From Candidatus Latescibacterota bacterium (lineage in GTDB: Bacteria > Latescibacterota > UBA2968 > UBA8231), in assembly GCA_965204725.1 (NCBI GenBank), contig OZ242005.1, positions 5,152,001 to 5,216,000 on the forward strand: DNA of 64,000 bases, given 5' to 3'. Numbering within the stretch: the stretch's first letter is position 1; every line of letters begins with the position of its first letter. The translations under genes and the position numbers were made by a program. Positions 18,384-38,118 of this stretch are shown here, piece after piece. The notes under the pieces are model-generated. The model was given only the letters and a program-made list of their open reading frames with translations, had not been told where the DNA came from and made no database searches.

Positions 18384-20354
18384 ATGGATTTGCCAAAAGA
18401 GCCTACCTTTCCCGCCCCCGGACGAGCCGAACCAGTCTTTACCACCAAAGCACTGGTGGGGGGCACCCTAGGGTCGCTGTGCATCGCCGTGGGTGCCCCT
18501 TACGGCAACATGGTCATCCGCGGCTCGTACATGTCCATTGATTTCAGCGCGGCGGGTGCCTTGTTCCTCTTCTTCGTGCTGACGGGCTTGTTCAACGCCT
18601 TGCTGGCTCGCTTCGCCGCTCCGGTGGCCTTTGGGCGCGGCGAGCTCATCGTCGCGTACATCATGATGCTCACGGCCTCGGCCATCCCCACGATGGGCCT
18701 TAGCGAGTACTGGCTGACGATCATCACCGGCGCCCAGTACTACGCCACCCCGGAAAACGAGTGGGCCTTGCTCATCCTACCGCACCTTCCCGACTGGATC
18801 GCGCCGCAGGATCCCGAGTCGATCAAGTGGTTTTACGAAGGGGCGCCGCGCACCGCGGGCGTACCTTGGGCGGTCTGGAGCGTCCCGCTGTGCTATTGGG
18901 CCGTGCTGATCGTGGCGCTGTACTTGGTCATGATCTCGTCTATGGTCATTTTGCGCCGCCAATGGGTGGAGCGGGAGCGGCTGGTCTATCCGCTGGTGCA
19001 AGTGCCCTTGGCCATGGTGCAGAGCGGCAGCCGAGGGCAGGCCCTAGGGCCTTTCTTCAAAAACCCGATCATGTGGATCGGATTTGCCCTGCCCGTGTTC
19101 GTCAGCAGCCTCAACGCCCTACACGCGTACTTCAACTTCGTCCCCGCCATCCAGCTCGTCGCCTCGGTGCCAATCCTACGCAACACCGTCAGCCTGATCT
19201 TCCGCTTGAGCTTTCCCATGGTGGGGTTCGCCTATCTCATCAACCTCGACATCGCCTTCAGCCTGTGGTTTTTCAACACCATCGCCAAGCTGATTCGAGG
19301 AGGGCTGGGGGTTTTAGGGGTCGGCAGCACCGAAAAGCTGGGCATTTACGGCGCGCCCAGCGAGCCTATTCTCGCCCACCACGGGCAGGGGGCGATGATC
19401 GTCTTGGTGCTGTTCGGCCTGTGGGTTGGCCGCGAGCACCTGCGCGACGTGCTGCGCAAGGCCCTCAAGGGCGACGACCGTATTGACGACCGCGGCGAGA
19501 TGCTCTCCTATCGGGCAGCGGTCTTAACTTGGCTCGGGGGGGTCGCGGTGATGACAATCTGGCTGTGGCAGTCCGGCTTGCCGCTGTGGGCGTCCTTTTT
19601 GACCCTGATGCTGGCCATTCTTATTTTCGTCGGCTTGACCCGCGTGGTGGTAGAGGGGGGCGTGGCCGCGGCGGTCGGGCCGATGATTTCGTCGTCGGCC
19701 TTGGTCTCGGCCGTAGGCTCTTCGGCGCTTGGCCCGGCGGGTATGGTGGGCCTTGCGTACACTTATGTATGGGCGGCGGATATCCGCACGTTTGTCATGG
19801 CTTCCTGCGCCCACGGACTCAAGCTGGGCGAGGAGTTGGGGCCGCGGCTGCGCCCGCTTTTTTGGTACATGTTGCTGGCGATTTTTGTCAGCATCGTCGG
19901 CTCGGTCGCAGCCATTTTATACCTCGCCTACGAATACGGCGGCATCAACCTCAACGGGTGGTTTTTTGGTGGTGGAACTCGCGCCCCTTTTGATTATATT
20001 ACCACCAAGTTGAGCGCGCCCACCGAGCCGAATATAGACGGCTGGATTCACACGGTGGTCGGCGGGGGCATCATGGCCCTGCTCATGTGGGCGCGGCACC
20101 AGCTTTTGTGGTGGCCGCTGCATCCCATTGGCTATCCCATTGGGGCCGTGTGGCTGATGGATCAGTTGTGGTTTAGCATTGCCCTTGCTTGGCTCTTAAA
20201 GTTAGCGGCCATGAAATACGGCGGTCCCAGCCTTTTTCGCCGGGCGCGCCCCTTCTTTTTAGGACTAATCGTAGGTCAGTTTTTTATCGCCGGGCTCTGG
20301 TTGATTATCGACTTTTTTACAGGCATGACCGACAATGTGGTCTTCTGGATCTGA
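18384..20354 (+). CDS. DUF6785/DUF6784-like polytopic membrane protein (OPT-related)
   Basis: Many TM segments; ILRRQWVERERLVYPL, WWPLHPIGY, KYGG..RRARPFFLGLIVG. Confidence 0.75.
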   Translation: MDLPKEPTFPAPGRAEPVFTTKALVGGTLGSLCIAVGAPYGNMVIRGSYMSIDFSAAGALFLFFVLTGLFNALLARFAAPVAFGRGELIVAYIMMLTASAIPTMGLSEYWLTIITGAQYYATPENEWALLILPHLPDWIAPQDPESIKWFYEGAPRTAGVPWAVWSVPLCYWAVLIVALYLVMISSMVILRRQWVERERLVYPLVQVPLAMVQSGSRGQALGPFFKNPIMWIGFALPVFVSSLNALHAYFNFVPAIQLVASVPILRNTVSLIFRLSFPMVGFAYLINLDIAFSLWFFNTIAKLIRGGLGVLGVGSTEKLGIYGAPSEPILAHHGQGAMIVLVLFGLWVGREHLRDVLRKALKGDDRIDDRGEMLSYRAAVLTWLGGVAVMTIWLWQSGLPLWASFLTLMLAILIFVGLTRVVVEGGVAAAVGPMISSSALVSAVGSSALGPAGMVGLAYTYVWAADIRTFVMASCAHGLKLGEELGPRLRPLFWYMLLAIFVSIVGSVAAILYLAYEYGGINLNGWFFGGGTRAPFDYITTKLSAPTEPNIDGWIHTVVGGGIMALLMWARHQLLWWPLHPIGYPIGAVWLMDQLWFSIALAWLLKLAAMKYGGPSLFRRARPFFLGLIVGQFFIAGLWLIIDFFTGMTDNVVFWI

Positions 20355-20371
20355 GAAAGGCACGTACAGCT

Positions 20372-23300
20372 ATGCCTAAGTTCGCGGTGAGGTGGATGGC
20401 CCTCGGCTGGGTTTTGGCCAGCGCGGCCCCGGCTTGGACCGAGGTCGATTTCGCCGAATTGGCGCATACGACTCCGGTCGAGCGCGTACAGCAGACGATG
20501 GACACTTTTGCTGGCTTGGGGTCTAGAGTGGCTGGCTATCGAGGCGCCGATCAAGCAGCCCAGATCGTGCAGGAGCGCTTCCGCGCAATCGGCCTCGACG
20601 ACATTGCAGTCCACGAATACGATGTGTCGATTCCCGTCGATAAGGGCGGGTTTCTGCAAGTCGTTGGCAGCGACGAACAAGTGCCCATTCACGGCCTCTG
20701 GCCCAACCTCGTCAAGACCTCGACGTTGCCCGAGGGTGGGGTGACCCAGCGCTTGATCGACGCCGGCGCCGGCGAGTACGCAGACATGGACGGCCAACAA
20801 GTCGAAGGGGCCGTGGCCCTGATGGACTTCAACTCGGATGACGCTTGGCTCAATGCCGCGTACCTCGGGGCGCAGGCCATCCTCTTTATCGAGCCGGATT
20901 CCACCGTGTACTTGGAGGGCGAAAAGAAGTTCCTGACCATGCCGCTCGACCTGCCGAGGTTTTGGGTCAATCGCCAAGCTGGTCAGCGCTTGCGCCGCCA
21001 GTTGGCCACCGAGGGCGAGCAAACTCTGCACCTAGAGTACCGCATGGATTGGGAGCGGCGTCCCGCTTGGAACATTCTCGGCTCGATCCCCGGGTACGAT
21101 CCCCTAATGAAAGAGGACGTCATCGTGCTGGAGGCGTACTACGACGCCATGTCGGTCGTGCCGGCCCTCGCCCCGGGTGCCGAGCAGGCCTCCAGCATTA
21201 CGGCGCTGTTGGAACTAGCGCGCTATTTCCGCGCCAACCCGCCGGCGCGCACAATCGTCTTTCTCGCCACCTCGGCCCACCACTTGGGCTTGCGCGGGGT
21301 CGATGATTTCATTCAGCGCTATTTGCGTAAAGAAGATCCCTTTATCGAACACATGCTGGTCAGGCGGGTCGTCGATGCGGCCCTCGCCCAGGACCTGATC
21401 GCCCAAGACGGCATTCACTACGCCATCGGCGAGGACCAATTCACCGGCAAGGAAGCCCTCGTGCGGGGCGTTGCCGAAGGGCGCACCGACTTGGCCGTGC
21501 GCGTTGCCGACGCCGCTCTCGCCGAAGGGCTGCTGGCCCAAGCGGAAGCCACTCCGAGCAGTTCAAGCTGGTGGAAAAAAACAATAGCATGGCTCAGGGG
21601 GCTGCTGAGCCGCGAAGAAGGCGTCCTGCACCTTGCCGACAAGCAATTCAAAGACCGCCGCGAACTGATCGCTCAGCTCGACGCGGACGATGACTTGCGC
21701 TTGGCCCTGTACAAGCGCTGGGCCGATCCCAAAATCGATTCGCTCGCGGTCAAGCTCTTTATCAGCCTCGACCTTTCGTCCCAGACCGACGAGCTCGGGG
21801 TGTGGAACAGCAATACCAGCTTTTACTACAAGCGCTACTTCGCGCCCTTCGGCAAGAACTTTATGGGATATGCGCGCACGATCAGCCGCGAGTTGGGCTA
21901 CCAGCAGCGCGACGTGCTGGTCAATGGCATCAGCCCCGAAGGCGGCATGAGTTGGCAGACCTTTGTACCCGGCGAAATATCGGTCAACAGCGAATTGGTG
22001 TTGGCCACCGGTACGCCGGCGTTGGCCTTTGTCACGGTCAACGACGCCCGCTTCCTCGTCGATACGCCCTTAGACCGCGCCGAGCGCGTCAACCACGCCA
22101 ATCTCGCCAAACAGATCCGAGTCCTCGCCGGCATGTTCGAGATGGCCTTTGAAGACCCCGAGCTTTTCCCAGACTTCAAGATGCGCCTGCGCGACAATCT
22201 GCGCTCGCTCCGCGGCCGCACCATGGTCTTTCCGCGCCGCAGCATCATCCCCGACCTGCCGCGCGCCGACGCCGTGGCCGTGGTGCGCAACGGCAAGAAA
22301 AAGTCGTATAAGGGTGTGCGCGGCGAGTACTATGAAGTCGTCGACGACAAGGGGGCCTTTTTCGTAAATCGGGTGCGGGTCAACAACGTCCAGATCGAGG
22401 GCTACTACATGGACCCGATCACCGGCCGCATCACCTACGCTCCAGACCGCGGCGTGCAAGGCGACGAGAGCTACCCCATGAAGGTCGCCATGGACTGGCG
22501 CGACAAGCAGTGGATGGTCATCCTCTTCCCCTGTGTGCCCTACAACTTCTTCGACATCGTCGATCCGCGCTATCTCACCAAGCTGTCCAACGTGGAGGTC
22601 TTCGACGAGACGAACAGCGCCCCAGTAGAATACGGTTATACCATTGGCGAAGGCCCCTCGGCCCAAAACGAGCCGGTCGGCGTGCTCTTTGCGCGGCCCG
22701 GCTCGCGCATCAAGATGGGATTCGGGGCCGGCCTGCTGGGGTTCCGCTCGCTCCTGCTCAACGCCACCAGCGTAACCGACAAGGAAAAGGCCGAGGGCGA
22801 GGGCTTTGAGATCCGCCCCGGGACTTCCTTTGCCCGCACGACCTTCCAAGCCGCCCAAGACATGTGGAACCTCGACGAGTCGCGGATGCGCGAGCTGCGG
22901 AGCTTTGCCATTGAAAACCAGCGCCTCAACGACCTTCACTATCGGGCCGAGACCGAGTTGGACCAAGCGGCCGCGGCCGGCACCGAGCAGCGCTGGGGCG
23001 ATTTTGTGCGCCACACCCGTGCGGCCTTCGGCTTAGAGTCGCGCGCCTACCCCGACGTCAAATCCACCCAAAACGACGTCATTCAGGGCATCATCTTCTT
23101 CATGGCCCTCGTCATTCCCTGCGCCTTTTTTACCGAGCGGCTCCTGTTTACGGCCGCCACCATTCGCAACCAGATCATCGGGTTTGTCGGGGTTTTTATC
23201 GCGATTTGGAGCGTGTTGTGGATGGTGCATCCGGCCTTTCAGTTGTCCAACCCCTTCGTCATTCTGCTCGCTTTCGTCATCATCGCGCTGGCCGTCCTCG

Positions 23301-25195
23301 TGATGTCGATCATCTCCGGCCGCTTCAACGAGCAGATGAAGAAGCTGCGCACCGAGGTGGCCGTGATCCACGACACGGATGTCAGCCGCTCTTCGGCCTC
23401 GCTCACGGCTTTTCAGCTTGGGATTTCCAATATGAAGCGGCGCAAGACGCGCACGGTCCTCACCTTTACCACGCTCTTGCTGCTGACCTTTACGGTCCTC
23501 TCCTTCACCTCCATCCGCACCGGCCTGCGGTTCAATCAAATCAGCCGCGACAACGAGGGCCTCTACGAGGGCATCCTAATCCGCAGCAAGGCGTGGAATC
23601 CCATGGAGGATTCCGTCCTCGAATACGCGCGCAGCAATTTCGGCGATCGGGCTGCGGTCGCGCCGCGCAGTTGGTACAGCAATAAGGCCAAAGCGCACAT
23701 CAAGATAAAACACGGAGAAAACGCCCATAACGCCCTCGGCGTCTTGGGCCTGACCCCGGAGGAAACCGAGGTCACCGGGCTGGACCAAGCCCTCGTCGCC
23801 GGGCGGTGGTTTGCGCCGGGCGAGGACAAGGTCTGCATCCTGCCCATCGACATGGTCAAGGAGGCCCATCTCGACGTCGATCTGGCCGATGTCGGCCAAG
23901 CGCAGGTCCGCATCTTCGGCGACTTGTTCACGGTGGTTGGCGTCCTCGACTCCAAGCGGATGAAGGACCTCAAAGACCTCGACGACGAAATCCTGACGCC
24001 GGCTGACTTTGCCGTCACCGGCGGCCAAGCCGTGCAGGAAATCGCCGAGGAGGAAAAGCGCGAGAAGCAGGGCTTGGAGGACGCCAAAGTCGTCATCAAG
24101 CCCTTTGTCCATCTGGAGCCAGCCAACATCCTCATCGTGCCCTACCACACGCTGCGCAACGTCGGCAGCGGCAACCCCTTACAGTCTGTGGCCGTGCGCT
24201 TTCCCGCCGGCAGCGACGTGCGCGGTGAGGTCGAGGAATTTCTCTCGCGCCTCGCGGTGACCCTGTTTGCTGGCATCAAGGAGCCGGGCGACGAATACAT
24301 CAAGGTGGCGATTTACTCTTCGCTGGGGCTGACCTCCTTTTCCGGGATGAGCAACTTGTTCATCCCCATGCTGATCGCTTCGCTCATCGTGCTCAATACC
24401 ATGATGGGCAGCGTGTACGAGCGCTTCCGCGAGATTGGCATCTACTCTTCAGTCGGCCTCGCGCCCGGCCATATCTCTTGGCTGTTTATCGCCGAGAGTT
24501 GCGTCTATTCGGTATTGGGCGTCGTCGCTGGTTATCTCAGCGGCCAAGTAATCGCCAAGGTGCTCATTGAGTCCGACCTGCTCGGAGGCTTCACGCTCAA
24601 CTACTCTTCTGTGGCTGCGGTGCTGTCCTGTATGCTGGTGATGGCCGTGGTCATGCTCTCGACGATTTATCCCGCCCGCAAGGCTTCGCAAATGGCCGTG
24701 CCGGACGTGACCCGCAAGTGGAAGCTGCCGCCGCCCGATGGCGACCAGTGGGATTTCGAGTTCCCCTTTACGGTGAGCGGCCACGAAGTCTTGGGCTTGA
24801 GCGTATTCCTCATCGGCTACTTCGATTCCTACAGCGAAGAGTCCATCGGCACCTTCTACACCGACGGTGCTCAGCTGCGCCGCGAAGAGACGCCCAACGG
24901 CGAAGGGTATCTCATCGACATGAATATCTGGCTGGCTCCGTTCGACTTGGGCGTCAGCCAACACGTCACCGTGCGGGCCATGCCCGAGGACGAGCACAAC
25001 ATCTACTCCGTCGGCCTGCAAATCAAGCGACTCAGCGGCGAGGATGCCTCGTGGCGTCGGGTCAACCAACGCTTTATGAACGTCATCCGCAAACAGTTCC
25101 TTATCTGGCGCACGGTGGATGCCGAGGCCAAGGAGAGCTACCGCCAACAGGGCGCGGAAATTCTGCAAGGGCTGCGTAGCGAAGTGTCGGCGTAG
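20372..25195 (+). CDS. Large secreted/membrane protein: PA domain + M28-like domain + FtsX-like permease
   Basis: Signal peptide; LEAYYDAMSVVPALAPGAEQAS..RTIVFLATSAHH; SNMKRRKTRT; NTMMGSVYERFREIGIYSSVGL (FtsX/MacB). Confidence 0.8.
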   Translation: MPKFAVRWMALGWVLASAAPAWTEVDFAELAHTTPVERVQQTMDTFAGLGSRVAGYRGADQAAQIVQERFRAIGLDDIAVHEYDVSIPVDKGGFLQVVGSDEQVPIHGLWPNLVKTSTLPEGGVTQRLIDAGAGEYADMDGQQVEGAVALMDFNSDDAWLNAAYLGAQAILFIEPDSTVYLEGEKKFLTMPLDLPRFWVNRQAGQRLRRQLATEGEQTLHLEYRMDWERRPAWNILGSIPGYDPLMKEDVIVLEAYYDAMSVVPALAPGAEQASSITALLELARYFRANPPARTIVFLATSAHHLGLRGVDDFIQRYLRKEDPFIEHMLVRRVVDAALAQDLIAQDGIHYAIGEDQFTGKEALVRGVAEGRTDLAVRVADAALAEGLLAQAEATPSSSSWWKKTIAWLRGLLSREEGVLHLADKQFKDRRELIAQLDADDDLRLALYKRWADPKIDSLAVKLFISLDLSSQTDELGVWNSNTSFYYKRYFAPFGKNFMGYARTISRELGYQQRDVLVNGISPEGGMSWQTFVPGEISVNSELVLATGTPALAFVTVNDARFLVDTPLDRAERVNHANLAKQIRVLAGMFEMAFEDPELFPDFKMRLRDNLRSLRGRTMVFPRRSIIPDLPRADAVAVVRNGKKKSYKGVRGEYYEVVDDKGAFFVNRVRVNNVQIEGYYMDPITGRITYAPDRGVQGDESYPMKVAMDWRDKQWMVILFPCVPYNFFDIVDPRYLTKLSNVEVFDETNSAPVEYGYTIGEGPSAQNEPVGVLFARPGSRIKMGFGAGLLGFRSLLLNATSVTDKEKAEGEGFEIRPGTSFARTTFQAAQDMWNLDESRMRELRSFAIENQRLNDLHYRAETELDQAAAAGTEQRWGDFVRHTRAAFGLESRAYPDVKSTQNDVIQGIIFFMALVIPCAFFTERLLFTAATIRNQIIGFVGVFIAIWSVLWMVHPAFQLSNPFVILLAFVIIALAVLVMSIISGRFNEQMKKLRTEVAVIHDTDVSRSSASLTAFQLGISNMKRRKTRTVLTFTTLLLLTFTVLSFTSIRTGLRFNQISRDNEGLYEGILIRSKAWNPMEDSVLEYARSNFGDRAAVAPRSWYSNKAKAHIKIKHGENAHNALGVLGLTPEETEVTGLDQALVAGRWFAPGEDKVCILPIDMVKEAHLDVDLADVGQAQVRIFGDLFTVVGVLDSKRMKDLKDLDDEILTPADFAVTGGQAVQEIAEEEKREKQGLEDAKVVIKPFVHLEPANILIVPYHTLRNVGSGNPLQSVAVRFPAGSDVRGEVEEFLSRLAVTLFAGIKEPGDEYIKVAIYSSLGLTSFSGMSNLFIPMLIASLIVLNTMMGSVYERFREIGIYSSVGLAPGHISWLFIAESCVYSVLGVVAGYLSGQVIAKVLIESDLLGGFTLNYSSVAAVLSCMLVMAVVMLSTIYPARKASQMAVPDVTRKWKLPPPDGDQWDFEFPFTVSGHEVLGLSVFLIGYFDSYSEESIGTFYTDGAQLRREETPNGEGYLIDMNIWLAPFDLGVSQHVTVRAMPEDEHNIYSVGLQIKRLSGEDASWRRVNQRFMNVIRKQFLIWRTVDAEAKESYRQQGAEILQGLRSEVSA

Positions 25196-25210
25196 GTGCG
25201 GTCTAAGAGG

Positions 25211-25265
25211 CGTCATTCCCGCGAACGGACGTCACCCCGTGCCCCGACACGGGGCGGGAATCCAG
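25211..25265. repeat. REP-like palindrome with a nested second palindrome
   Basis: CGTCATTCCCGC...GCGGGAATCCAG enclosing GTCACCCCGTG-CCCCGA-CACGGGG. Confidence 0.65.
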
Positions 25266-25565
25266 CCGGTATCGTTTAGACTCAAAGGACGCCCACCAGA
25301 GTTTGCAGACCGCTTCTAAGTAGAAGTTTCCCGTCTCGACCGGCGGCTCGGCGGTAGCGGGTTTGCCTATTCTTTCCAGATCAACGACCAGATGACAGCC
25401 GTCGTGTGGTTCGTTCTGCTCCTTCTTTTTTACTCAAACATAACAAGCGTACCGAGGGGGATGTGGGCGCGTCGTCGGAGGCGTATCGGCCGGTTCGGGG
25501 GATGAGGATTGGCAACTGCGGGCAACGGCTCGCTACCTGCTCTTAGGGAGCGTGGAGGACACAAA

Positions 25566-26408
25566 ATGTGGACGTATCGAGTGGGCATCATTGCGTTGTT
25601 CGTCCTATTGCGGATGGGCGATGCGGATGCGGATGCGGAGCCAGCAGAAATCACGATTCACATCCGTGGACAGTACAAGGCGGAGATTTCGGCTCTGTTG
25701 TTGGCGGCTGATGGGGGGACGACGAGGACTGGGATCGCCGAGTTGGATTCCCTTGCTGCCACATACCGCCTGATGGGGATAGATCATAAGTCTGGCTTTT
25801 ATGGGTATCGGTTTCGGCTGACGTTTCCACCGGGTGCGGATGGGGCCGCCATGGCCGGAGCCTATAGGAACCTATCCTATATACAATCGGTTGAATCGGT
25901 TAGCTCCTTGACGGTGAACGAGAGACACCGCCCTTTCCTTTTGTTTGACATAGAAGACAGGGGACTCCGGTTGCTCGCAAAGGTGGGTGCTGGGACTGTT
26001 TCGGGGCTCGCTCTTACAGCCTTGTCCATACCTTTTCAGGACGGGATAGTTGAGCCATCTGGCGACCCTGACACTGACGCTTGGAGAGGATTAGAATTTC
26101 TTTTAATTGGCACAGCCATCGGCTGTAGTGTCGGATTCCCGTTGGGTGTGAGCTTAGTCGATCCTTATGATTCTTTACCCAAGACTCTACTCGCCGGTGT
26201 TATACCGGGAGCGGTCGGCTTTTCCACCTTGTTACTAAATCAAGAGGCCGCGGGCATAGCGTTCTTGTCTATGTACGTCGTCCCTGTTATTAGTTCACCT
26301 ATTATGTCTGAACTATCGCGCCAGCCTCCTCAAGCCCGCCGCGTCTCCTTCGCTTTATCCCCCACCCTCAACGGCGGCCTCTCCGCCGTAGCCCAACTTC
26401 GCTTTTGA
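25566..26408 (+). CDS. Array paralogue 1 (signal, propeptide-like domain, type A C-module)
   Basis: EITIHIRG..TGIAELDSLAATY..YRFRLTFPPGAD..YIQSV; ends GGLSAVAQLRF. Confidence 0.75.
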   Translation: MWTYRVGIIALFVLLRMGDADADAEPAEITIHIRGQYKAEISALLLAADGGTTRTGIAELDSLAATYRLMGIDHKSGFYGYRFRLTFPPGADGAAMAGAYRNLSYIQSVESVSSLTVNERHRPFLLFDIEDRGLRLLAKVGAGTVSGLALTALSIPFQDGIVEPSGDPDTDAWRGLEFLLIGTAIGCSVGFPLGVSLVDPYDSLPKTLLAGVIPGAVGFSTLLLNQEAAGIAFLSMYVVPVISSPIMSELSRQPPQARRVSFALSPTLNGGLSAVAQLRF

Positions 26409-26435
26409 CCTTGCAACAAGAGAAAGGCTCGCCTC

Positions 26436-29033: not shown

Positions 29034-29075
29034 CCCTGCACTGAGAGAAAGGCTTGAAACAGAAAGGACTGTGAC

Positions 29076-29750: not shown

Positions 29751-29751
29751 C

Positions 29752-31101
29752 ATGCGCTTTATCTTGCTACTCTTTCTGTTGGGAGTTGGCTCTGCGGCTG
29801 GCGACGCCAGCGAGCCGGTTCCCTCGCCGCCCTACTGGACGGGTCGGATCGAACAGGACACGACGTGGCGCGACACGGTATATGTCGGCGGCGACGTGAC
29901 GATTGCAGCAGCGGCGACCCTGACGCTGGCTCCCAATACGCAGGTTCTCTTTCTGCCCTACCACGATGCGACCCGAAGCGGCTTGGACTCGACCCGTGCG
30001 GAACTGACCGTCGAAGGGCGGCTGGCGGCGCAAGCAGGCGGCATCGTCTTTCGTTCAGCGGATGCGGGTTCGTTGGGAGCCGATTGGCATGGCCTTGTCG
30101 TCGAGCGAGGTGGGCGAGCGGACGTATCCAACGCTGCGATACGCGATGGCTTGCGCTGTCTGTATGCCAAGCGGGGTGGGCGCGTCAGGATGGACGCTAT
30201 CGCCTTTGCCAACTGCGGCAAGCCGACCGCACCAGCGGATGCGGCCAAGCTGGCGACGCCGGCGGGAACATGGCGAAAAGAAGAGCTTGGGCTGTTCCAT
30301 CCACGCGAAACAAAAATCACACCCCCGATGAACCAACCATTCGAGAGACAAGAGATCACGATTCATATCAGTGGAGAGCACAAGGCGGTGATTTCGGCTT
30401 TGTCGGCGGCTGTTGACGAGGAGACGACGGTTACGGGGATCGCCGAGTTGGATTCTCTTGCTGCCATCTATGGCCTGATGGGGATATATCGTACGGGTCG
30501 ATCCTCTAACGTTGATGATGGGTCTCGGTTTCGGCTGACGTTTCCGCCGGGTGCGGAGGTGGCCGCCATTGCCGAAGCCTATTTGAACCTATCTTATATA
30601 CAATCGGTAGGGAACGAGAGGCACCGCCCTTTTGACATAGAAAACAGGGGACTACGATTACTCACAAAGGTGGCCGCTGGGACTGCTTCGGGGGCCGCTC
30701 TTACAGCCATGACCACGAGTGCTCTGGGCGCAATAGATGAACCATCTGACGACCATAACAATAATCCTTATGGAGGATTAGACTTTTTCATATTTGGCGC
30801 AGCCATCGGCAGTACGGTCGGATTCCCAATTGGTGTGAGCTTAGTTGATCCTTACGATTCTTTCGTCGCGACACTCATGGGCGGTGTTATGACTGGAGGG
30901 GGTGGTTTAGCCTTGGTAGGAGCTGGGAGGGGCTCATGGCTCTCGGTTATAGGGGGAGCGGTGGCCTTATGCGGCCCTTTTATTGGTTCACTCAGTGCGT
31001 CAGAGAAGTCGCGCCAGCCTCCTCAAGACCGCCGGATCTCCTTCGCTTTATCCCCGACCCTCAACGGCGGCCTCTCCGCCGTTACCACGTTGCGCTTTTG
31101 A
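29752..31101 (+). CDS. Array paralogue 5 with an extra N-terminal beta-helix-like segment
   Basis: GRIEQDTTW..GDVTI..LTLAPNTQV..LTVEGRL..DWHGL, then the shared domain and type A module. Confidence 0.75.
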   Translation: MRFILLLFLLGVGSAAGDASEPVPSPPYWTGRIEQDTTWRDTVYVGGDVTIAAAATLTLAPNTQVLFLPYHDATRSGLDSTRAELTVEGRLAAQAGGIVFRSADAGSLGADWHGLVVERGGRADVSNAAIRDGLRCLYAKRGGRVRMDAIAFANCGKPTAPADAAKLATPAGTWRKEELGLFHPRETKITPPMNQPFERQEITIHISGEHKAVISALSAAVDEETTVTGIAELDSLAAIYGLMGIYRTGRSSNVDDGSRFRLTFPPGAEVAAIAEAYLNLSYIQSVGNERHRPFDIENRGLRLLTKVAAGTASGAALTAMTTSALGAIDEPSDDHNNNPYGGLDFFIFGAAIGSTVGFPIGVSLVDPYDSFVATLMGGVMTGGGGLALVGAGRGSWLSVIGGAVALCGPFIGSLSASEKSRQPPQDRRISFALSPTLNGGLSAVTTLRF

Positions 31102-31177
31102 CCCTGCAACAAGAAGAAAGGCCCCGCCCCATGTTCCTTCGGCTCTGTCGGCGGCGGTTGACGCGGAGACGATAGGT

Positions 31178-31203
31178 GGCCCTTTGCCGGAGGGCTTTTT
31201 TTA
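31178..31203 (+). terminator. Intrinsic terminator
   Basis: GCCCT-TTGCCGG-AGGGC followed by a T-run. Confidence 0.65.
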
Positions 31204-31266
31204 GCATATTAAGGAGCATGGTGCGGCTCCTGCTTATACCACTGTCCAGCTTGGGAGGCGTCAAAA

Positions 31267-31809
31267 ATGGACTGGAATAATCCTCTTATCTACATAGTTC
31301 CCGGACTAGCTGTCCTTGGATGGATCATCCGTTTGGAAAGATGGATGGGTAAGAAAGACGAGTCTATACGCCTCATAGAAGAGAATATCGTGAAATTAGA
31401 AGCAGCTATCCGTGAAATAAGGACGGATATTAAGGAATTGTTCAGAAATGGCCCTGGGGCGGTTACTGCACAAAATAGCCCGCTCCGCTTAACTGAGCGG
31501 GGAGAGGCTATCTCTGAGGTGTTGGGAGCAAAGGCGTGGGCAACGCGGACGGCGCAGGACGTATCACCTAAGCTGAAGGGGAGCCACCCCTATGATATTC
31601 AAATGTTCTGTATGGACTACGTGGACCAAACTTCCAATTTTACCCGCGAGTTTATTGACCAGATTAAGACGTACTCGTATGAGAAAGCTGTGCCGATGAG
31701 CCAAATTAAGGACGTGATGGCGGTAGAATTGCGCGATGCGATCCTGACAGCTATTGCCCGATTAAAGCCGGATGAAGCGTCAGCGTCCCGCCGATATGAA
31801 CCAACTTAG
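31267..31809 (+). CDS. Hypothetical membrane-anchored coiled-coil protein (AT-richer)
   Basis: N-terminal TM, coiled coil, SPLRLTERGE motif; GGAGG SD. Confidence 0.65.
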   Translation: MDWNNPLIYIVPGLAVLGWIIRLERWMGKKDESIRLIEENIVKLEAAIREIRTDIKELFRNGPGAVTAQNSPLRLTERGEAISEVLGAKAWATRTAQDVSPKLKGSHPYDIQMFCMDYVDQTSNFTREFIDQIKTYSYEKAVPMSQIKDVMAVELRDAILTAIARLKPDEASASRRYEPT

Positions 31810-31824
31810 GTAAAATCCCCTACC

Positions 31825-32880
31825 ATGATACCCCATAGGCTGCCTATCATCGTCTGGTTCGTCTTGGTCTTGCTGGCGGGTCGTGCGGTAGATGGGAAGG
31901 CAGAGACGCTGCCGAGAAATACGGCTCAAGCCATCGACCATACCTACGACACGCGCCTGTACTGGATGGGTCAGATCGAGCAGGACACGACGTGGCGCGA
32001 CACCGCGCCAGCGGATGCGGCCAAGCCGGCGACGCCGGCGGGAACGGAGCGAAAAGAAGACCTTGAACTGTCCCAGCAACGCGAAACAAAAATCACACCC
32101 CCGATGAACCAACCATTTGAGATACAAGAGATCACGATTTATGGCGGGCACAAGGAGGTGGTTTTGGTGCTGTTAGAGGCGGTTGACGAAGGGACGCCGG
32201 TTACCGGAATCGCCGGGTTGGATTCTCTGGCTGCCACCTATGGCTTGATTGGGATATATCGTACGGGTCGAAGGTCCTCTGGTCTTTATGGATACCGTTT
32301 TGGGCTGACGTTTCCGCCGGGTGCGGATGTGGCCGCCATTGCCAAAGCATATAGGAACCTATCCTACATACAATCTATCAAATCGGGGGACTCCTTAACG
32401 ATGAAAGGGATGCGTCCTTCTTTCAATATAGAAAACGGGGGACTACGGTTACTCGCAAAGGTGGCCGCTGGGACTGGTTCGGGGATGGCTGTTACAGCCC
32501 TAGCCGTGGGTGTTCTGGACCAGATATATGATCCTCTAAGTGACCCTGACGCTAACGCTGATAGAGGATTGGGCTTTCTTTTGGCTGGTGCAGCCATCGG
32601 CTGTAGTGTCGGATTCCCGTTCGGTGTGAGCTCAATCGATCCTTATGATTCTTTACCCAAGACGCTACTCGCCGGTGTTATACCGGGAGCGGTCGGCTTT
32701 TCCGCTTTGCTACAAGCAGACGTGGGCATAGGGTTCTTGTTTGCGTACGTCGTCCCTGTTATTAGTTCACCTATTATGTCTGAACTATCGCGCCAGCTTC
32801 CTCAAGACCGCCGGATCTCCTTCGCTTTATCCCCGACCCTCAACGGCGGCCTCTCCGCCGTTACCATGTTGCGCTTTTGA
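31825..32880 (+). CDS. Array paralogue 6 (internal deletion relative to paralogue 5)
   Basis: EQDTTWRDT joined directly to APADAAK; type A module ending AVTMLRF. Confidence 0.75.
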   Translation: MIPHRLPIIVWFVLVLLAGRAVDGKAETLPRNTAQAIDHTYDTRLYWMGQIEQDTTWRDTAPADAAKPATPAGTERKEDLELSQQRETKITPPMNQPFEIQEITIYGGHKEVVLVLLEAVDEGTPVTGIAGLDSLAATYGLIGIYRTGRRSSGLYGYRFGLTFPPGADVAAIAKAYRNLSYIQSIKSGDSLTMKGMRPSFNIENGGLRLLAKVAAGTGSGMAVTALAVGVLDQIYDPLSDPDANADRGLGFLLAGAAIGCSVGFPFGVSSIDPYDSLPKTLLAGVIPGAVGFSALLQADVGIGFLFAYVVPVISSPIMSELSRQLPQDRRISFALSPTLNGGLSAVTMLRF

Positions 32881-32998
32881 CCTTGCAACAAGAGAAAGCT
32901 CCCCTATGTCCATCCTTAATGTCTCTATTTACATGGAAAAACTGGACAACTAACGCGATGGGGATGCAAATGACGCCTTTCGTCAGGAGGATTGTCTA

Positions 32999-33919
32999 AT
33001 GCGATCGTTCGTTTTTTATGTTATTGGCTTATTGGGAAGTGTCGTTATCGCTCCGGCCGTCTGTCTAGCCGAAGATTCCAACCGGTTTTCTTTCCCGCTT
33101 CCCTTGTCTCTGGCAGTTGGCGACCATTGGACCTATTCCATTGTGAAAACCCATTTGAGGTATGAAGATGATTTGAAGTTTGTAGGTAGGATCCTTGATA
33201 CGCTATCCACTGAAACTCTGACCATTCGTGTGGTAGAGTCCCTTCAGATAGAGGATCGGACCTATTTTGCGTTGAGTGACGGAGGCTTATACCGCGTAGA
33301 TGAGGAAAAGAGAACTTGGCGGTATGATACTGAGGCTGAGAGCGAGAAGGTCGTCTGGGATATATGGGGACCACTGGAATACAAAACCATCGAGTTTCCC
33401 CTTCCCGGATTGAGTCAGCTAGAACCCGCTATAGAAAGACCAGTGATCGATGAATATGCATGCGAGTACGCATGTTTTTCAAGACATGGCCCATTTGTAT
33501 GGCGCCCAGATCCTGAGTATGAGGAGGGCTATGCTTGGATTTCTACTATTGAGGTAGGTACCGTTCGACACGATTCCTATCTCGGGTACTTTATTTATGT
33601 GCCCTTTGTATGGAGTTATGACGACCTCATCAAGCTCCCAGACTGGGGTATAACCGAACTTTATGTGTTTCAGGACACACCGTATGGGACTGAGTACGTA
33701 CCGAAGGAGACTCTTGTTGTAGCACCCAACGTTGGTGTCGTTTATCATGCGTCTTTCAGCTATACCTATAATTTGACCCTTTCCCCTTCAGAGACAAAAA
33801 AAACGGAATGGGTCTTACAGGACATGCAGAAAGGCCATCCAGAAAGTACTGTTGTAGAGGATATATCCTTTGGTGCGCTAAAGCAGCGGATGACACGATC
33901 CACCTCAAAGGCTCCGTGA
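32999..33919 (+). CDS. Secreted hypothetical protein
   Basis: Signal peptide; PLSLAVGDHWTY; C-terminal ISFGALK; AT-richer than the backbone. Confidence 0.65.
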   Translation: MRSFVFYVIGLLGSVVIAPAVCLAEDSNRFSFPLPLSLAVGDHWTYSIVKTHLRYEDDLKFVGRILDTLSTETLTIRVVESLQIEDRTYFALSDGGLYRVDEEKRTWRYDTEAESEKVVWDIWGPLEYKTIEFPLPGLSQLEPAIERPVIDEYACEYACFSRHGPFVWRPDPEYEEGYAWISTIEVGTVRHDSYLGYFIYVPFVWSYDDLIKLPDWGITELYVFQDTPYGTEYVPKETLVVAPNVGVVYHASFSYTYNLTLSPSETKKTEWVLQDMQKGHPESTVVEDISFGALKQRMTRSTSKAP

Positions 33920-34354
33920 GTTCCTCCATAAGCAATCGCCGTAGGACTGCCTGCTTTAGCTGGCCGGTGGATAGGCGCGTCCCCGTGTTCAACCACGGGG
34001 AGGCTTTGAGCGAAAGGCGGACATTTCGTATGCTTTCCCTTGCCGTGTCGCTCTTTGACAAGAGAAGAGGTAGGCGGTTCCAACCCCGAATCGCCGCAGG
34101 CGGGTTCAACGCTGATGGCGACCGGACCCGCCGATTACGGGCCTGCGGTGGCGGTGGTTCACCCGCCGCTTCCCGGCCTCGCCACGCAAGCCATGATCCC
34201 AGCACCCCCTGAGCATCTGCAATCTGTCCGGGCAGCGGTGCTCGCGAAGGCAGAATCCCTGCGGGCCGGATCGCGTCCCGTGGTGTGGGTGGTATGCCGC
34301 TGGCGTCTGAGTTATATTTATACCGCCCAAGCAAAAAGCGGAGGTCCATAGCGA

Positions 34355-36769
34355 ATGCTCGGAAGAAAAAATAGAAACCCGAACCAAGAGATCGAAGAGT
34401 ATCGGGATTTAATGCAGGTCCCGGACCGCTTTGAGAACGGCTTTACGATCAAGGCCGTCCTCGGCGTCCTCTTCGTCTCCTTTATCATGGTGCCGGGCAA
34501 TATGTACCTGAGCCTGATGATCGGCGGCTCTTTGGGGGCGGCAGCCGAGTGGGTGACCATCATCCTCTTCGCCGAAATCACCAAGCGCTCCTTTTCCTCC
34601 CTGCGCCGCCAAGAAGTCTATGTGCTGTTCTACGTGGCCGCCTCCCTGATCGCCGCCGAGACCGGCGCCTTTGAGGGCTTGCTCTACAACCAGTACTTGG
34701 TGCAATCGCCAGCCGCCAAGCAGTTCGGCATCACCAAGCTGATTCCCACGTGGGTGGCACCGCAGCCCGACTCCCTCGCCATCATCGAGCGCACCTTCCT
34801 GCACTCGGATTGGGCGATGCCCATCGTCCTCCTCGTCTTGGGGATGATCATCTCGCGCGTCAACTGGTTCACCATGTCATACGCGCTCTTCCGGCTTAGC
34901 TCCGACTACGAGCGCCTGCCCTTCCCCTTCGCGCCCGTCAACGCGCAAGGCGCTACGGCACTGGCCGAGACCACCCAAGGAGTTGAGACGTGGCGCTGGC
35001 GAGTGTTCTCGGCCGGGGCGATGATTGGCTTGGTCTTTGGCACGATCTACGTGGCCCTGCCGGCCATTACCGGCGCACTGCTGACCGAGCCGATCCAACT
35101 CATCCCCATCCCCTTTGTTGATTTCACCCAAGTCACCGGCAACTTCATCCCCGCTACGCCGCTCGGATTTACCGCCCACTTGGGGCCGATCTTCACCGGG
35201 CTGGTGGTGCCGTTCTGGGGCGTGGTCGGCACCTTTATCGGCGTGGTCGTCGCCTCGATTGCCAATCCGCTGCTCTATACTTGGACGCCGCCGTGGCGCG
35301 AGGAGCCGTACCTGAACTTGTGGCAGCAAGGCATGGGCACGGTCGAGACCTTCTTCGTCAACAACGTCGATTTCTGGATGAGCTTTGGCATTGGCACCAC
35401 CGTCGCCATCGCCATCATCGGCATCTATCAGGTCATTCAGAGCATCCGCGGGGCGAGGGCCAACGCCAGTGACGACAGCCCCCGCAGCTTTGCCACCCCC
35501 GCCGGCCGCGGCGATTTCCCAATATGGCTGGCACTGGCGCTATACGCCTTGGCCACGGCCGGCCTAATCGGCATCGCCGCTTGGCTGCTGCCGGGCATTG
35601 CCCAATTTATATGGTTCTTCCTCTTTTTTGGCTTCGTCTTCACGCCCTTTCAGTCCTTTGTCAACGCCCGCCTAGTCGGGATGGTCGGGCAGACGGTGGA
35701 TATTCCCTTTGTGCGCGAGGCGACGATCATCCTCTCAGGGTATCGCGGCGTTGACATCTGGTTCATTCCGTTTCCCTTGGGCAACTACGGCGCCCAGACC
35801 ATGAAGTTCCGCGAAATTGAGCTGACCGGCACTCAGTTCACCAGCATCATCCGCGCCGAGGTGTTCATGGTGCCCATCGTGCTCTTCACCAGCTTTCTCT
35901 ACGGCTCCTATATATGGAAACTGGCGCCAATTCCGTCGGCCTCCTACCCCTATGCCCAGCTAATCTGGCGGCTGCGCGCCTACCAGCAATGCCTCTTTAT
36001 CACCGGCACCATGCGCAGCGAACTGGCCATAGACAAGGACCGGGCGGGATGGACGCCGGCCAACCTAATCGAGAACGAGTGGTGGTACTGGCGAGTGCGG
36101 CTGGTGGATCAGGAGTGGCTGGACTCCAACGGCAAGCGCGGCCAAGTCGGCCCGTGGATGCCGACCCAAGTGTTCTACTCGTACTTCGATCCGGGAGCAC
36201 CCGACATTGTTTCCGAGCGCTACCTGCGCGACGCGCAGCAAGCCGAAGAGGAAATTGTCGCGGGCCTGCCGGCCATTGCCCCGCTGGGGCCGGCCATGGA
36301 CACCATCATCCGCGACCCCCGCCCGACCCTCGAAGTGCAGGTCGAGCGAGCCGTGCCGGCGGGATGGTCTTTTTACTTTGAGGTCGATACCGATCCGCTC
36401 TTTACCAGCTCTTGGATCCAGCGATCCACCGACGTGCCTTGGCTCTTTAGGGCGCTGAAAACCGAGGTCATCGCCTTTGGGGCCGGCTTCGGGCTGGTGA
36501 GCTTTGTTCTGCTGTCCATTCTCGGGCTGCCGATCTTGCTGATCTTTGGCTTCGTGCGCTCGCTGACGTCGCTGCCGCATTTCGTGGTGACCGAGATCAT
36601 CGGCGCATTCTTGGCCCGCTACTACTTCTGGAACAAGTACGGGCGGCAAGAGTGGCGGCAGTTTGCCCCCATTCTGGCGGTGGGCTTTTCCTGCGGCATG
36701 GCGTTGATGGGCATGGCGTCGGTGGGGATCGCCCTGATCCAGAAATCGGTCTCCGTGCTGATTTTCTAG
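34355..36769 (+). CDS. OPT-like peptide transporter with a soluble insertion
   Basis: Many TM segments; AAEWVTIILF, ERLPFPFAPV; soluble insert around 36010-36440. Confidence 0.72.
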   Translation: MLGRKNRNPNQEIEEYRDLMQVPDRFENGFTIKAVLGVLFVSFIMVPGNMYLSLMIGGSLGAAAEWVTIILFAEITKRSFSSLRRQEVYVLFYVAASLIAAETGAFEGLLYNQYLVQSPAAKQFGITKLIPTWVAPQPDSLAIIERTFLHSDWAMPIVLLVLGMIISRVNWFTMSYALFRLSSDYERLPFPFAPVNAQGATALAETTQGVETWRWRVFSAGAMIGLVFGTIYVALPAITGALLTEPIQLIPIPFVDFTQVTGNFIPATPLGFTAHLGPIFTGLVVPFWGVVGTFIGVVVASIANPLLYTWTPPWREEPYLNLWQQGMGTVETFFVNNVDFWMSFGIGTTVAIAIIGIYQVIQSIRGARANASDDSPRSFATPAGRGDFPIWLALALYALATAGLIGIAAWLLPGIAQFIWFFLFFGFVFTPFQSFVNARLVGMVGQTVDIPFVREATIILSGYRGVDIWFIPFPLGNYGAQTMKFREIELTGTQFTSIIRAEVFMVPIVLFTSFLYGSYIWKLAPIPSASYPYAQLIWRLRAYQQCLFITGTMRSELAIDKDRAGWTPANLIENEWWYWRVRLVDQEWLDSNGKRGQVGPWMPTQVFYSYFDPGAPDIVSERYLRDAQQAEEEIVAGLPAIAPLGPAMDTIIRDPRPTLEVQVERAVPAGWSFYFEVDTDPLFTSSWIQRSTDVPWLFRALKTEVIAFGAGFGLVSFVLLSILGLPILLIFGFVRSLTSLPHFVVTEIIGAFLARYYFWNKYGRQEWRQFAPILAVGFSCGMALMGMASVGIALIQKSVSVLIF

Positions 36770-36770
36770 C

Positions 36771-37763
36771 ATGAGCGATTGGGTGGATTTCGCGTGGCAG
36801 GGGCTGCGGTTGTCCGTGCCCGACGACTGGAACCTCGGCCGGGTTGACGGGGATTTTGAAAAGGGCTATGCCCGCCTCGACGACGCCGAGATCGTGCGCG
36901 CCGAGATTGAATGGCGGCGTCTCAGAGGCCGCGGCGAGGCCCTGCGCCTGACCGAGCTGGTCGATCGCTACTTGGCCAACCTGCAAAAGAAGGCCCAAAA
37001 GGCCGATGCTCCCTTTGAGGTTGAGCGCCGCGCCCGATTCCTCAAAAACAAGAAGTTCCTCCAAGGCCGCGAATACGAGGTCTTTATATGGGAGGCCGAT
37101 TTCCGGGCGTACAACCTCGCGCTCGCCTTGGGGTCTGGGCGGGTTGTGCTCCTGCGGGTGTTGGCCCGGCTCGATGAGTTTTTGCCCGAGCAAGCCGAGG
37201 CCGTGTTCAGCTCACTCGCCGACCAAGAAGCCGAGGCCGCTCACCTGTGGAGCGTGTACGGCTTGCGGTTTTTCGCGCCCAGCGACCTCAAGCTCCAAAG
37301 CCATTCCCTCAAGTCGGGGCACCTCCAGCTAGAGTTTACCCGCGGCAAACAGACGCTGCGGGTCCATCGGCTGAGCATGGCCCGAATCATGCTCAAAGGC
37401 GCGGCCATCCAAGACTGGTACCCGGTCTTTTTTAAGAAGCCGTTGCGCGACTTGGTGGTGGATGTTGTGCCAGAAGCCGTGCGAGAATGCGAGGGCATTC
37501 GCATTGAGGGGCGGCCGCGCAGCCGCTGGCGTCAGTTGCTGCGCCCCCTGCCCTTTATGAACCCGAGGCCGCGCCTGTATATGCGAGGGCGCGTCTGGCG
37601 CGATACCGGCCTCGACAAAATCGCAATCGTTGAGCACCTCTATCGCAAGAAAGACTCAGAAGACGATCTCGTCGCCAAGGTAGTAGATGGGCATTTTATC
37701 GAAAAACAAGGGACCCAAGCTGAGCCGGGCCGCCATGCTGGCGTCGCGGCCAACGCGCAATGA
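36771..37763 (+). CDS. Hypothetical soluble protein
   Basis: Starts 1 nt after the transporter stop; FAWQGLRLSVPDDW and WSVYGLRFFAP repeat-like motifs. Confidence 0.7.
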   Translation: MSDWVDFAWQGLRLSVPDDWNLGRVDGDFEKGYARLDDAEIVRAEIEWRRLRGRGEALRLTELVDRYLANLQKKAQKADAPFEVERRARFLKNKKFLQGREYEVFIWEADFRAYNLALALGSGRVVLLRVLARLDEFLPEQAEAVFSSLADQEAEAAHLWSVYGLRFFAPSDLKLQSHSLKSGHLQLEFTRGKQTLRVHRLSMARIMLKGAAIQDWYPVFFKKPLRDLVVDVVPEAVRECEGIRIEGRPRSRWRQLLRPLPFMNPRPRLYMRGRVWRDTGLDKIAIVEHLYRKKDSEDDLVAKVVDGHFIEKQGTQAEPGRHAGVAANAQ

Positions 37764-38118
37764 ATCCCTGCGCTGGGAGCACAACGACACCGGCGAAATC
37801 CAAGTCTTTATAACACGCCAAGATACTTGGAAGGTCAGGCTGCTGTCCAAGTTTTTCTACATCCCCAAACAGCGCAAAATCACCCTCGACGAAGTAGGCA
37901 GCGAGGTCTGGCGGATGTGCAACGGCCGCAATTCGGTTGGCAGGATGATCGACCTGCTCAGCGACCAGTACCAACTCAACCGCAAGGAGGCCGAAGTCTC
38001 CCTGCTCCAATACTTGAAGACCCTTGGGCAGAAGCGCTTTATCGGCTTTGTGCTAGAGGGCGACGAAAGGCCGCCCGACCGCGGCGCGGCCAGCGGAAAA
38101 AAATGGCAAAAGAAATAA
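37687..38118 (+). CDS. PqqD-family (RRE-like) protein
   Basis: ITLDEVGSEVWRMCNGRNSVGRMIDLL..EAEVSLLQYLKTLGQKRFI. Confidence 0.78.
   Translation: MGILSKNKGPKLSRAAMLASRPTRNESLRWEHNDTGEIQVFITRQDTWKVRLLSKFFYIPKQRKITLDEVGSEVWRMCNGRNSVGRMIDLLSDQYQLNRKEAEVSLLQYLKTLGQKRFIGFVLEGDERPPDRGAASGKKWQKK

Follow-up and report, generated by a model that had tools for sequence, protein, structure and literature searches.

Type VII ATP-binding cassette (ABC) systems, which include MacB, LolCDE, FtsEX and YtrF (PF02687), move or activate things in the periplasm, and proteins of the oligopeptide transporter (OPT) family import. We know of no type VII ABC system described as working with OPT-fold permeases or with an adaptor of the RRE type, the recognition element named after ribosomally synthesized and post-translationally modified peptides (RiPPs). 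The window analysed here, 64,000 nucleotides (nt) from a Candidatus Latescibacterota bacterium (GenBank assembly GCA_965204725.1, contig OZ242005.1, positions 5,152,001 to 5,216,000), holds five genes for a DUF6785/DUF6784 membrane protein, a giant FtsX-type protein, a membrane protein with a predicted OPT fold, a soluble protein with PsbP/Mog1-like domains and a PqqD-type RRE protein. Our best reading of these genes is that they represent, in this lineage, an inner-membrane machine of several proteins that is conserved in Latescibacterota and in which a type VII (MacB/Lol-like) ABC mechanotransducer would be coupled to OPT-fold permeases, with a PsbP-like/RRE adaptor on the motor. Taken as a whole, this explanation has in our judgement about an even chance of being right; the composition of the machine is very probable, and the uptake mechanism described below is offered tentatively, at rather less than even chances.

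All five open reading frames (ORFs) lie on the forward strand at the positions reported by an earlier reading made from the sequence alone (hereafter the sequence-only reading). The left half comprises the gene for the 656-amino acid (aa) DUF6785/DUF6784 protein (18384-20354; Pfam E 5e-125 and 9e-31, respectively) and, after a gap of 17 nt, that for the 1607-aa giant (20372-25195), in which Pfam places Peptidase_M28 at residues 234-319, MacB_PCD at 1028-1214 and FtsX at 1330-1441. The right half comprises genes for an 804-aa protein (P804; 34355-36769), preceded by a GGAGG ribosome-binding site that was read from the sequence (34340-34344), for a 330-aa protein (P330; 36771-37763) and for a 143-aa PqqD-type protein (37687-38118). 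P804 and P330 genes are 1 nt apart, and those for P330 and the PqqD-type protein overlap by 77 nt. Between the halves, and in the same orientation, stands a 9159-nt array of paralogous genes for exported proteins (25196-34354).

The proposal of the sequence-only reading that both halves come from one ancestral operon, split by this array, is strongly supported by gene neighbourhoods. Window proteins were placed by tblastn in 53 loci encoding P804 relatives, which came from a scan of one genome per species; two further loci and 11 regions around P330 matches completed the set. The 53 loci are labelled mostly as Latescibacterota, with some Gemmatimonadota, Planctomycetota, Dehalococcoidales and uncultured bacterium, and two of them are from Lentisphaerae (41% identity to P804). 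A P804-type gene stands directly behind the giant gene in 49 of 50 loci (one of them, L044, through a tandem copy), and in 48 of the 50 loci with both ends visible less than 200 nt separate the end of the giant gene from the start of the P804 gene. Adjacency is complete for P804 with P330 (48/48) and for P330 with the PqqD-type gene (48/48). The DUF6785 gene lies directly upstream of the giant in 28 of the 43 loci with enough upstream DNA and is an optional first gene of the operon.

Of 50 related loci, 49 lack the array; apart from the window it occurs only in the nearest relative (L001, 98% identical), in a shorter version. When the junctions were compared, the insertion was found to start right behind the giant stop codon and to end immediately ahead of a GGAGG; this motif corresponds to the GGGAGG spacer of the uninterrupted locus L002 and has been kept from the unsplit operon. 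Contigs from two public runs of RNA libraries (X19 and X20), which are 90-95% like the window and so come from relatives, join position 25194 to 34348 with AGGGAGG between, and a DNA run (X4) holds array pieces in rearranged order; the uninterrupted joint and the rearranged pieces together show that the array is young and variable and that the reading as one ancestral operon is right. The array does not belong to the machine; it has broken up the operon at the point where the giant stop codon would be followed by the ribosome-binding site of the P804 gene. A gap of 2663 nt in L044 was considered as a second insertion and rejected: it is filled by a second P804-type gene that starts 34 nt behind the giant stop. 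Two P804-type genes thus stand in tandem behind the giant gene of that locus (L044:475-5507).

The giant resembles the permeases of type VII ABC systems in that its single four-helix FtsX module encloses a MacB-type periplasmic core domain between helices one and two; a PA/M28-like ectodomain of ~900 aa, a C-terminal tail and three additional helices set it apart from them. From the N- to the C-terminus it consists of a signal peptide, the ectodomain, three transmembrane (TM) segments, the MacB-type module (a TM segment, the periplasmic core domain and three TM segments) and the tail of ~165 aa, with hydrophobic segments at residues 903-981 (three), 1030-1048 and 1323-1432. FtsX (PF02687) was matched with 57 bits against a cut-off of 25.5, and MacB_PCD with 36.2 bits against a cut-off of 27, the latter match being flanked by the hydrophobic segments at 1030-1048 and from 1323 onward. 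An ERFREIG-type motif region is kept in the FtsX module and aligns with MacB. Matches to sequences of the Protein Data Bank (PDB) were YwaD, MacB (5lil, 5xu1), YtrF and LolC, and relatives bear generic database names ('FtsX-like permease family protein', 'M28 family peptidase', 'hypothetical protein'). All NCBIfam equivalogs remained far below their cut-offs. One paralog of the giant in the genome of the window is a single frame of 2086 aa in which the giant is fused to a complete DUF6785/DUF6784 protein (L055:4830-11090, corresponding to G000:C1:504830-511090), and such a fusion argues for physical contact between the two.

The sequence-only reading had also suggested peptide processing, which the M28-like region makes unlikely. 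Peptidase_M28 scores 35.3 bits against a cut-off of 21.3, covering positions 1-79 of the 193 in the profile. The only source of the PA (protease-associated) label is the similarity to YwaD, an aminopeptidase with a PA domain (6hc6, residues 46-321, E 4e-9), in an alignment that takes in the first third of the ectodomain; the Pfam PA model had no match in the giant, and a protein atlas searched with residues 330-900 returned nothing usable. Where YwaD has AHYDS, GANDN and AEE, the giant has AYYDA, GAEQ and AHH, and all eight orthologs compared have Tyr for the canonical His, Gln or Asn for the bridging Asp, and His-His or His-Phe for Glu-Glu. Variants of these substitutions were found in five giant paralogs and two Lentisphaerae proteins, with two of the five paralogs keeping only the first His. 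The canonical zinc ligands and catalytic Glu are thus missing at the three alignable positions, the second half of the domain being outside the alignment. The giant is not an M28 peptidase with an intact active site, and its ectodomain is probably non-catalytic.

P804 shares with the OPT/YSL family the overall fold of barley Yellow Stripe 1 (YS1). Its AlphaFold2 (AF2) model (predicted local distance difference test score, pLDDT, 76.4; predicted template modelling score, pTM, 0.77) matched, in a Foldseek search of the PDB at E<=1e-3, only YS1 (7wst, E 2e-9; 7wsr, E 1.3e-8), with template modelling scores, by target, of 0.62-0.65. On the strength of this model P804 is assigned an OPT fold, which agrees with the 'OPT-like' label of the sequence-only reading. 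The likeness does not extend to sequence: P804 matched no Pfam family even at E<=10, the OPT profile (PF03169) included, and no NCBIfam model, nor was there a match to YS1; the profile of its family likewise had no match among PDB sequences, and the protein atlas returned only its own and unnamed Latescibacterota clusters. P804 is not, at the level of sequence, a Pfam OPT protein. Further differences from OPT/YSL proteins are a beta-rich inserted domain of ~150 aa (around residues 553-700) and, for these OPT-fold proteins, genes that stand together with that for an FtsX-type ABC component and in one case, that of a DUF6785 protein, are fused to it. A 1094-aa paralog of P804 elsewhere in the genome (L059:11508-14792, G000:C1:1641507-1644791) carries a PDZ_6 domain inside this insert.

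DUF6785 is, by profile-profile comparison, a distant homolog of the N-terminal half of P804. The two families were aligned by hhalign over 314 columns (probability 94.6, E 7e-8), a relationship that BLASTP could not have established, as its only hit between DUF6785 and P804 was at E 0.08. The link of DUF6785 to the OPT fold is indirect and runs through this alignment; the DUF6785 profile itself gave no match against PDB sequences. Around 20 stand-alone DUF6785 loci, 96 of 146 called ORFs were scanned, and the neighbours included aldo-keto reductase (three), PhyH dioxygenase (three), DHDPS-like (two), GFO/IDH/MocA (two) and SBP_bac_5 (two) proteins, as well as a sulfatase, a gamma-glutamyltranspeptidase, an M20 peptidase, a lactonase and a rhamnose mutarotase.

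The remaining two proteins of the operon are a cytoplasmic pair. P330 has neither a signal peptide nor a TM segment, and its AF2 model (pLDDT 85.8, pTM 0.81) consists of two tandem PsbP/Mog1-like domains, with the immunity proteins TplEi/Tli4 of the type VI secretion system (T6SS; 5h7y, E 8e-6) and PsbP as nearest structures in Foldseek; Pfam had no match even at E<=10. It shares the two-domain beta-sandwich fold with these proteins and differs in being only ~10% identical, in being cytoplasmic and in having no T6SS context. The family is large, with at least 1396 representatives at E<=1e-3, 686 of them reaching E<=1e-10, and the few source names among distant relatives are Brocadiaceae and Planctomycetota. 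Most relatives bear a CxxC...C...CH pattern resembling a metal site, all four residues of which have been lost in the clade of the window. In one family member, P0249, a P330-like protein is naturally fused to PqqD.

The PqqD-type protein carries the winged-helix domain PF05402 (41.5 bits, cut-off 23.4). Its family profile matches the lasso peptide protein TbiB1 (5v1u, E 6e-6) and PqqD (3g2b, 5sxy) over the winged-helix core, which it shares with these discrete RREs. It differs from them by a conserved N-terminal extension of ~55 aa, by a fixed PsbP-like partner, by FtsX/ABC neighbours and by the lack of RiPP enzymes nearby, and every NCBIfam PqqD model fell below its cut-off (lasso_PqqD_Bac 28.9 against 80, PQQ_PqqD 27.3 against 46, and geo_PqqD of GeoRSP 27.6 against 100). 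In 48 loci its gene is preceded by that for P330 and followed by genes for a membrane protein and RecD2. The window, the metagenome locus L062 and the Lentisphaerae locus L052 showed no RiPP enzyme, in searches that did not extend to small precursor ORFs, and a Pfam scan of the window proteins found neither a radical SAM enzyme nor a RiPP enzyme. The system is not a RiPP pathway. These findings support the proposal of the sequence-only reading that a PqqD-type RRE works here outside RiPP biosynthesis, its constant partners being P330 and an FtsX/ABC pair. Because the RRE is tied to a single-copy motor, described below, and not to multi-copy specificity modules, a role in binding the leader peptides of diverse cargo is less likely than a role on the machine itself. 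A complex prediction for P330 (residues 1-312) with the PqqD-type protein, both given as alignments, scored 0.01 against a mark of 0.32; it was run with no controls and is not evidence either way.

The sequence-only reading had seen no ATPase beside these genes, and as far as the window is concerned this holds: the Pfam scan found no MacB-type ATPase, and the sole ABC_tran domain belongs to an ABC_membrane-fused exporter at 50771-53062. A small FtsX protein and an ATPase nevertheless appear to belong to the system, in cis in deep-branching relatives and probably in trans here. Three linked arrangements were found. Searching 121 genomes of the phylum with P330 and fetching 11 regions around matches revealed, in four of these regions (G005, G003, G016 and G011, all deep-branching genomes of the same phylum), the co-oriented order giant, P804, P330, PqqD, small FtsX and ABC ATPase. 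In the Lentisphaerae locus L052 the order is DUF6785/6784, giant, P804-like, small FtsX (360 aa) and two ABC ATPases. Finally, L062, a metagenome contig with a distant P330 relative, encodes a P330-like protein, PqqD, FtsX (473 aa) and an ABC ATPase; neither a giant nor an OPT-like gene lies within 10 kb of the set.

In the genome of the window, a small FtsX (247 aa) and an ATPase (ABC258) are encoded by single-copy genes at G000:C1:538894-540432, 4.6 Mb from the window, with the ATPase at 539.7-540.4 kb. The ATPase is 71.5% identical to that of L062 and 63% to that of L052, and the membrane parts of the FtsX proteins are 46-57% identical; the two proteins are the orthologs of the ones encoded in cis in relatives. 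A second, lone LolD-like ATPase (C1:560326-560988; 272 aa) is 55% identical to the operon ATPases of L062 and L052. The best NCBIfam models of the ATPases are LolD, MacB, DarD, YbbA, DevA and FtsE, all below their cut-offs. LolD/MacB-like ATPases encoded with the giant in relatives are a further trait shared with type VII systems, and a second, different FtsX protein in the operon is reminiscent of the LolC/LolE pair. The differences lie in the partner FtsX, which at 247 aa is almost without a periplasmic domain, in the constant association with OPT-fold and PsbP-like/RRE proteins, and in an ATPase that is encoded in trans and would have six alternative giant partners.

The distribution of the components across the 121 genomes, a co-occurrence profile of the kind suggested with the sequence-only reading, is consistent with this grouping. 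P330 was found in 102 genomes, the small FtsX ortholog (E<=1e-20) in 101, and the P804 family, DUF6785 and the C-terminal module of the giant (E<=1e-30) in 107 each, and all five were found in 0 of the 13 genomes of family f10, many of which are >90% complete. P330 and small FtsX occurred together in 97 genomes, and in 15 neither was found; the nine discordant genomes are all 60-91% complete. A set of 14 well-known control genomes yielded no DUF6785. Copy numbers divide the components in another way, since the genome of the window has six giant, five P804-type and 33 DUF6785 genes against one small FtsX ortholog, one P330 and one PqqD, and small genomes with a complete operon have a single giant gene. 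The simplest reading of these counts is a constant motor with variable, duplicated specificity modules. A first look at other genomes yielded 20-68 DUF6785 candidates per genome, which suggested a similar expansion in many genomes of the phylum.

Gene orders and gene sets, the three linked arrangements, co-occurrence, folds, the two fusions and the degenerate peptidase site were established directly, and from here on we infer: a heterodimer, a shared motor, a direction of transport, a substrate and a role for the RRE. The core of the machine would be formed by the giant, the small FtsX partner and the LolD-like ATPase, an assembly of the MacB/LolCDE/FtsEX kind. The giant and the small FtsX would form a pair comparable to LolC and LolE, seated on a LolD-like ATPase dimer; that the Lentisphaerae locus has two distinct ATPase genes fits a heterodimeric assembly. 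A single small FtsX and a single ATPase would probably serve all six giant paralogs, and each giant would be coupled to OPT-fold proteins, namely P804 and, optionally, DUF6785. ATP hydrolysis could move the periplasmic domains of the giant/small FtsX pair, which would capture a periplasmic substrate (possibly a peptide, as the sequence-only reading had it, or another nutrient oligomer) and hand it to the OPT-fold permease for uptake. The cytoplasmic P330/PqqD pair would sit on the motor side and not on the cargo, where it might bind a signal peptide or some peptide stretch of the machine itself, and thereby assemble or regulate the motor. The array, for its part, is a recent insertion directly behind the giant stop codon. 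Uptake is favoured by the multi-copy specificity parts together with the catabolic neighbours of stand-alone DUF6785 loci, and the PDZ domain in the insert of one P804 paralog is a hint in the same direction. In its most far-reaching form, 'one motor, many receptors', a single ATP motor and adaptor pair would be shared by interchangeable giant partners, each coupled or fused to OPT-fold permeases; we regard this modular uptake scheme as possible and on balance unlikely.

A serious rival is a machine for export or envelope biogenesis, to which we assign a small though real probability. Here the P330/PqqD pair would hold cytoplasmic cargo via a leader-like segment, the OPT-fold protein would pass it over the inner membrane and the ABC module would expel it from the periplasm or insert it, much as MacB deals with peptide toxins and LolCDE with lipoproteins. 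RRE domains of PqqD and lasso B1 proteins bind leader peptides, and the nearest solved relatives of the RRE are just these, PqqD and TbiB1; the folds nearest to P330 include protein-binding proteins (the T6SS immunity proteins and PsbP); and MacB and LolC, the solved relatives of the FtsX module of the giant, act on periplasmic substrates heading outward. Envelope genes also occur nearby, with the envelope-glycan genes for RmlD, glycosyltransferase family 2 (GT2) and GDP-mannose dehydratase beside the small FtsX/ABC genes of the own genome, a 3-deoxy-D-manno-octulosonic acid (Kdo) transferase gene beside a weak P330-like gene in Lentisphaerae, and SpoIID near L062. However, the operon contains no conserved candidate cargo gene, and the single copies of P330 and PqqD, set against multi-copy giant, P804 and DUF6785 genes, are better explained by a motor that stays constant while uptake modules vary than by a single cargo adaptor. 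Moreover, the only characterised OPT-fold structure that was matched is that of an importer, and the catabolic neighbours of the DUF6785 paralogs point to uptake.

Other accounts would reassign single parts of the system. If the ectodomain were an active M28 aminopeptidase that trims peptides before OPT-type import, no ATPase would be needed, and both the above-threshold Peptidase_M28 match with its alignment to YwaD and the OPT-fold partners in a window devoid of a suitable ATPase speak for it; this is improbable in view of the short stretch of the profile that is matched, the ligands replaced in every ortholog compared, and the operons, in Lentisphaerae and four deep-branching genomes, that include an ATPase and a small FtsX. 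More improbable still is that the giant works here without ATP, driven or scaffolded by proton-coupled OPT-fold partners, while the distant FtsX and ATPase serve something else. The six giant loci of the own genome with no ATPase among their scanned ORFs, the giant-DUF6785 fusion and the additional cytoplasmic tail of the giant are in keeping with such a scheme, yet orthologous small FtsX and ATPase genes share an operon with giant and P804 genes in five loci of two phyla, they show the phyletic pattern of the giant gene, and the ERFREIG-type motif region has been kept. The P330/PqqD pair could, lastly, be an unrelated neighbour such as the remnant of a RiPP pathway, in line with its PqqD family membership and with its standing apart from the membrane genes in three families (f2, f3 and f6). 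We consider this very improbable, as the pair adjoins P804 or the small FtsX/ABC genes in three arrangements from at least two phyla, begins 1 nt downstream of P804 here and follows the phyletic pattern of the small FtsX, and as no RiPP enzyme was seen in the window, L062 or L052.

Several points weigh against the ABC-driven uptake machine as well. Known OPT proteins are proton-coupled on their own, so that the need for an ABC motor is unexplained, and the mixed set of DUF6785 neighbours is a weak guide to the substrate. No ATPase was found beside the six giant loci of the own genome (81 of 100 called ORFs scanned), and use of the distant ATPase is accordingly deduced from orthology and from the order of genes in other genomes. 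The P330-PqqD pair is located apart from the giant and P804 genes and from the small FtsX in families f2, f3 and f6, and the Lentisphaerae operon is without P330 and PqqD, with only a weak P330-like gene (E 2e-13) ~9 kb off; the machine may be able to do without the P330/PqqD adaptor. With a loss or absence in f10 as roughly its only independent event, the co-occurrence is supportive without being statistical proof. As only the first half of the M28 domain aligns, a non-canonical active site that uses the conserved E and HH could also exist in the giant. The full-text literature held no paper on DUF6785, on DUF6784 or on PqqD together with FtsX, and nothing relevant to Latescibacteria, FtsX and oligopeptide transporters stood among the matches listed.

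The machine is widespread, conserved and unstudied. Were the modular uptake scheme described above correct, the machine would be a hybrid of a primary mechanotransducer with a secondary-transporter fold, filling the role of TonB-dependent or SusCD-type systems in Latescibacterota and perhaps in Planctomycetota and Lentisphaerae. It would also give the RRE domain its first role outside peptide natural-product biosynthesis, a concrete case of recruitment elsewhere, and would provide functions for two Pfam DUFs, for a family of at least 1396 representatives and for a large 'FtsX-like permease / M28 peptidase' family. With 33 DUF6785 and six giant genes in a 5.4-Mb genome, these are among the most expanded membrane families of Latescibacterota, and if the machine were the main route of oligomer uptake in the phylum, it would explain how these uncultured polymer degraders feed.

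The inserted array differs from its surroundings in composition (G+C 0.48-0.58, against 0.60-0.63 in the flanks) and holds nine co-oriented ORFs (25509-33919), most of which are paralogs without a Pfam match. Seven have in common a signal peptide, an N-terminal domain of ~100 aa that is conserved, a hydrophobic part rich in Gly and the C-terminal ending ...LRF; between them stand a NosD-like beta-helix ORF (29076-29750) and three other, unrelated ORFs. More copies of this family are found at C1:1794553-1797284 and at C1:3770353-3773262. We considered whether the array proteins are cargo of the machine and rejected the idea, given the copies at 1.79 and 3.77 Mb, away from giant loci, and the 49 of 50 operons without an array. 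Predicted sigma-70 promoters and terminators within 25100-34400 showed no excess over shuffled sequences (6 against 6.4 and 9 against 9.1, respectively). A hairpin, CCCCGTGCCCCGACACGGGG, occurs at 25235-25254, just behind the giant stop codon, and another with the same stem and a different loop at 33981-34000, near the other end of the insertion. The genome contains 53 hairpins with the stem CCCCGTG...CACGGGG, most of them with the CCCCGTGCCCCGACACGGGG loop or its reverse complement, and the element looks like a repetitive extragenic palindromic (REP)-like intergenic element.

Elsewhere the window holds housekeeping genes. Upstream of the operon, at 17425-18335, are an ORF with a NusG_II domain and a gene for a membrane protein of the 'heptaprenyl diphosphate synthase component I' type, the latter occupying the same position before the operon in nearly all related loci. 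Downstream, a 298-aa ORF (37827-38723) overlaps the PqqD gene in another frame, and distant loci conserve it only from about residue 110 onward; its true start is probably just behind the PqqD stop codon, which would leave a membrane protein of ~190 aa with a weak PAP2 match (E 0.0036). A 1703-aa protein encoded on the reverse strand at 42682-47793 combines DUF4011, AAA_11/AAA_12 helicase, MTES_1575 nuclease and DUF3320 domains. Public runs that hold positions 33000-38200 are mostly labelled sponge or marine metagenome, several of them with coded organism names. Three RNA-library runs carry relatives' versions of the giant, P804, P330 and PqqD genes; their contigs do not cover the array and cover DUF6785 little, which proves nothing about either, nor can such contigs rank expression.

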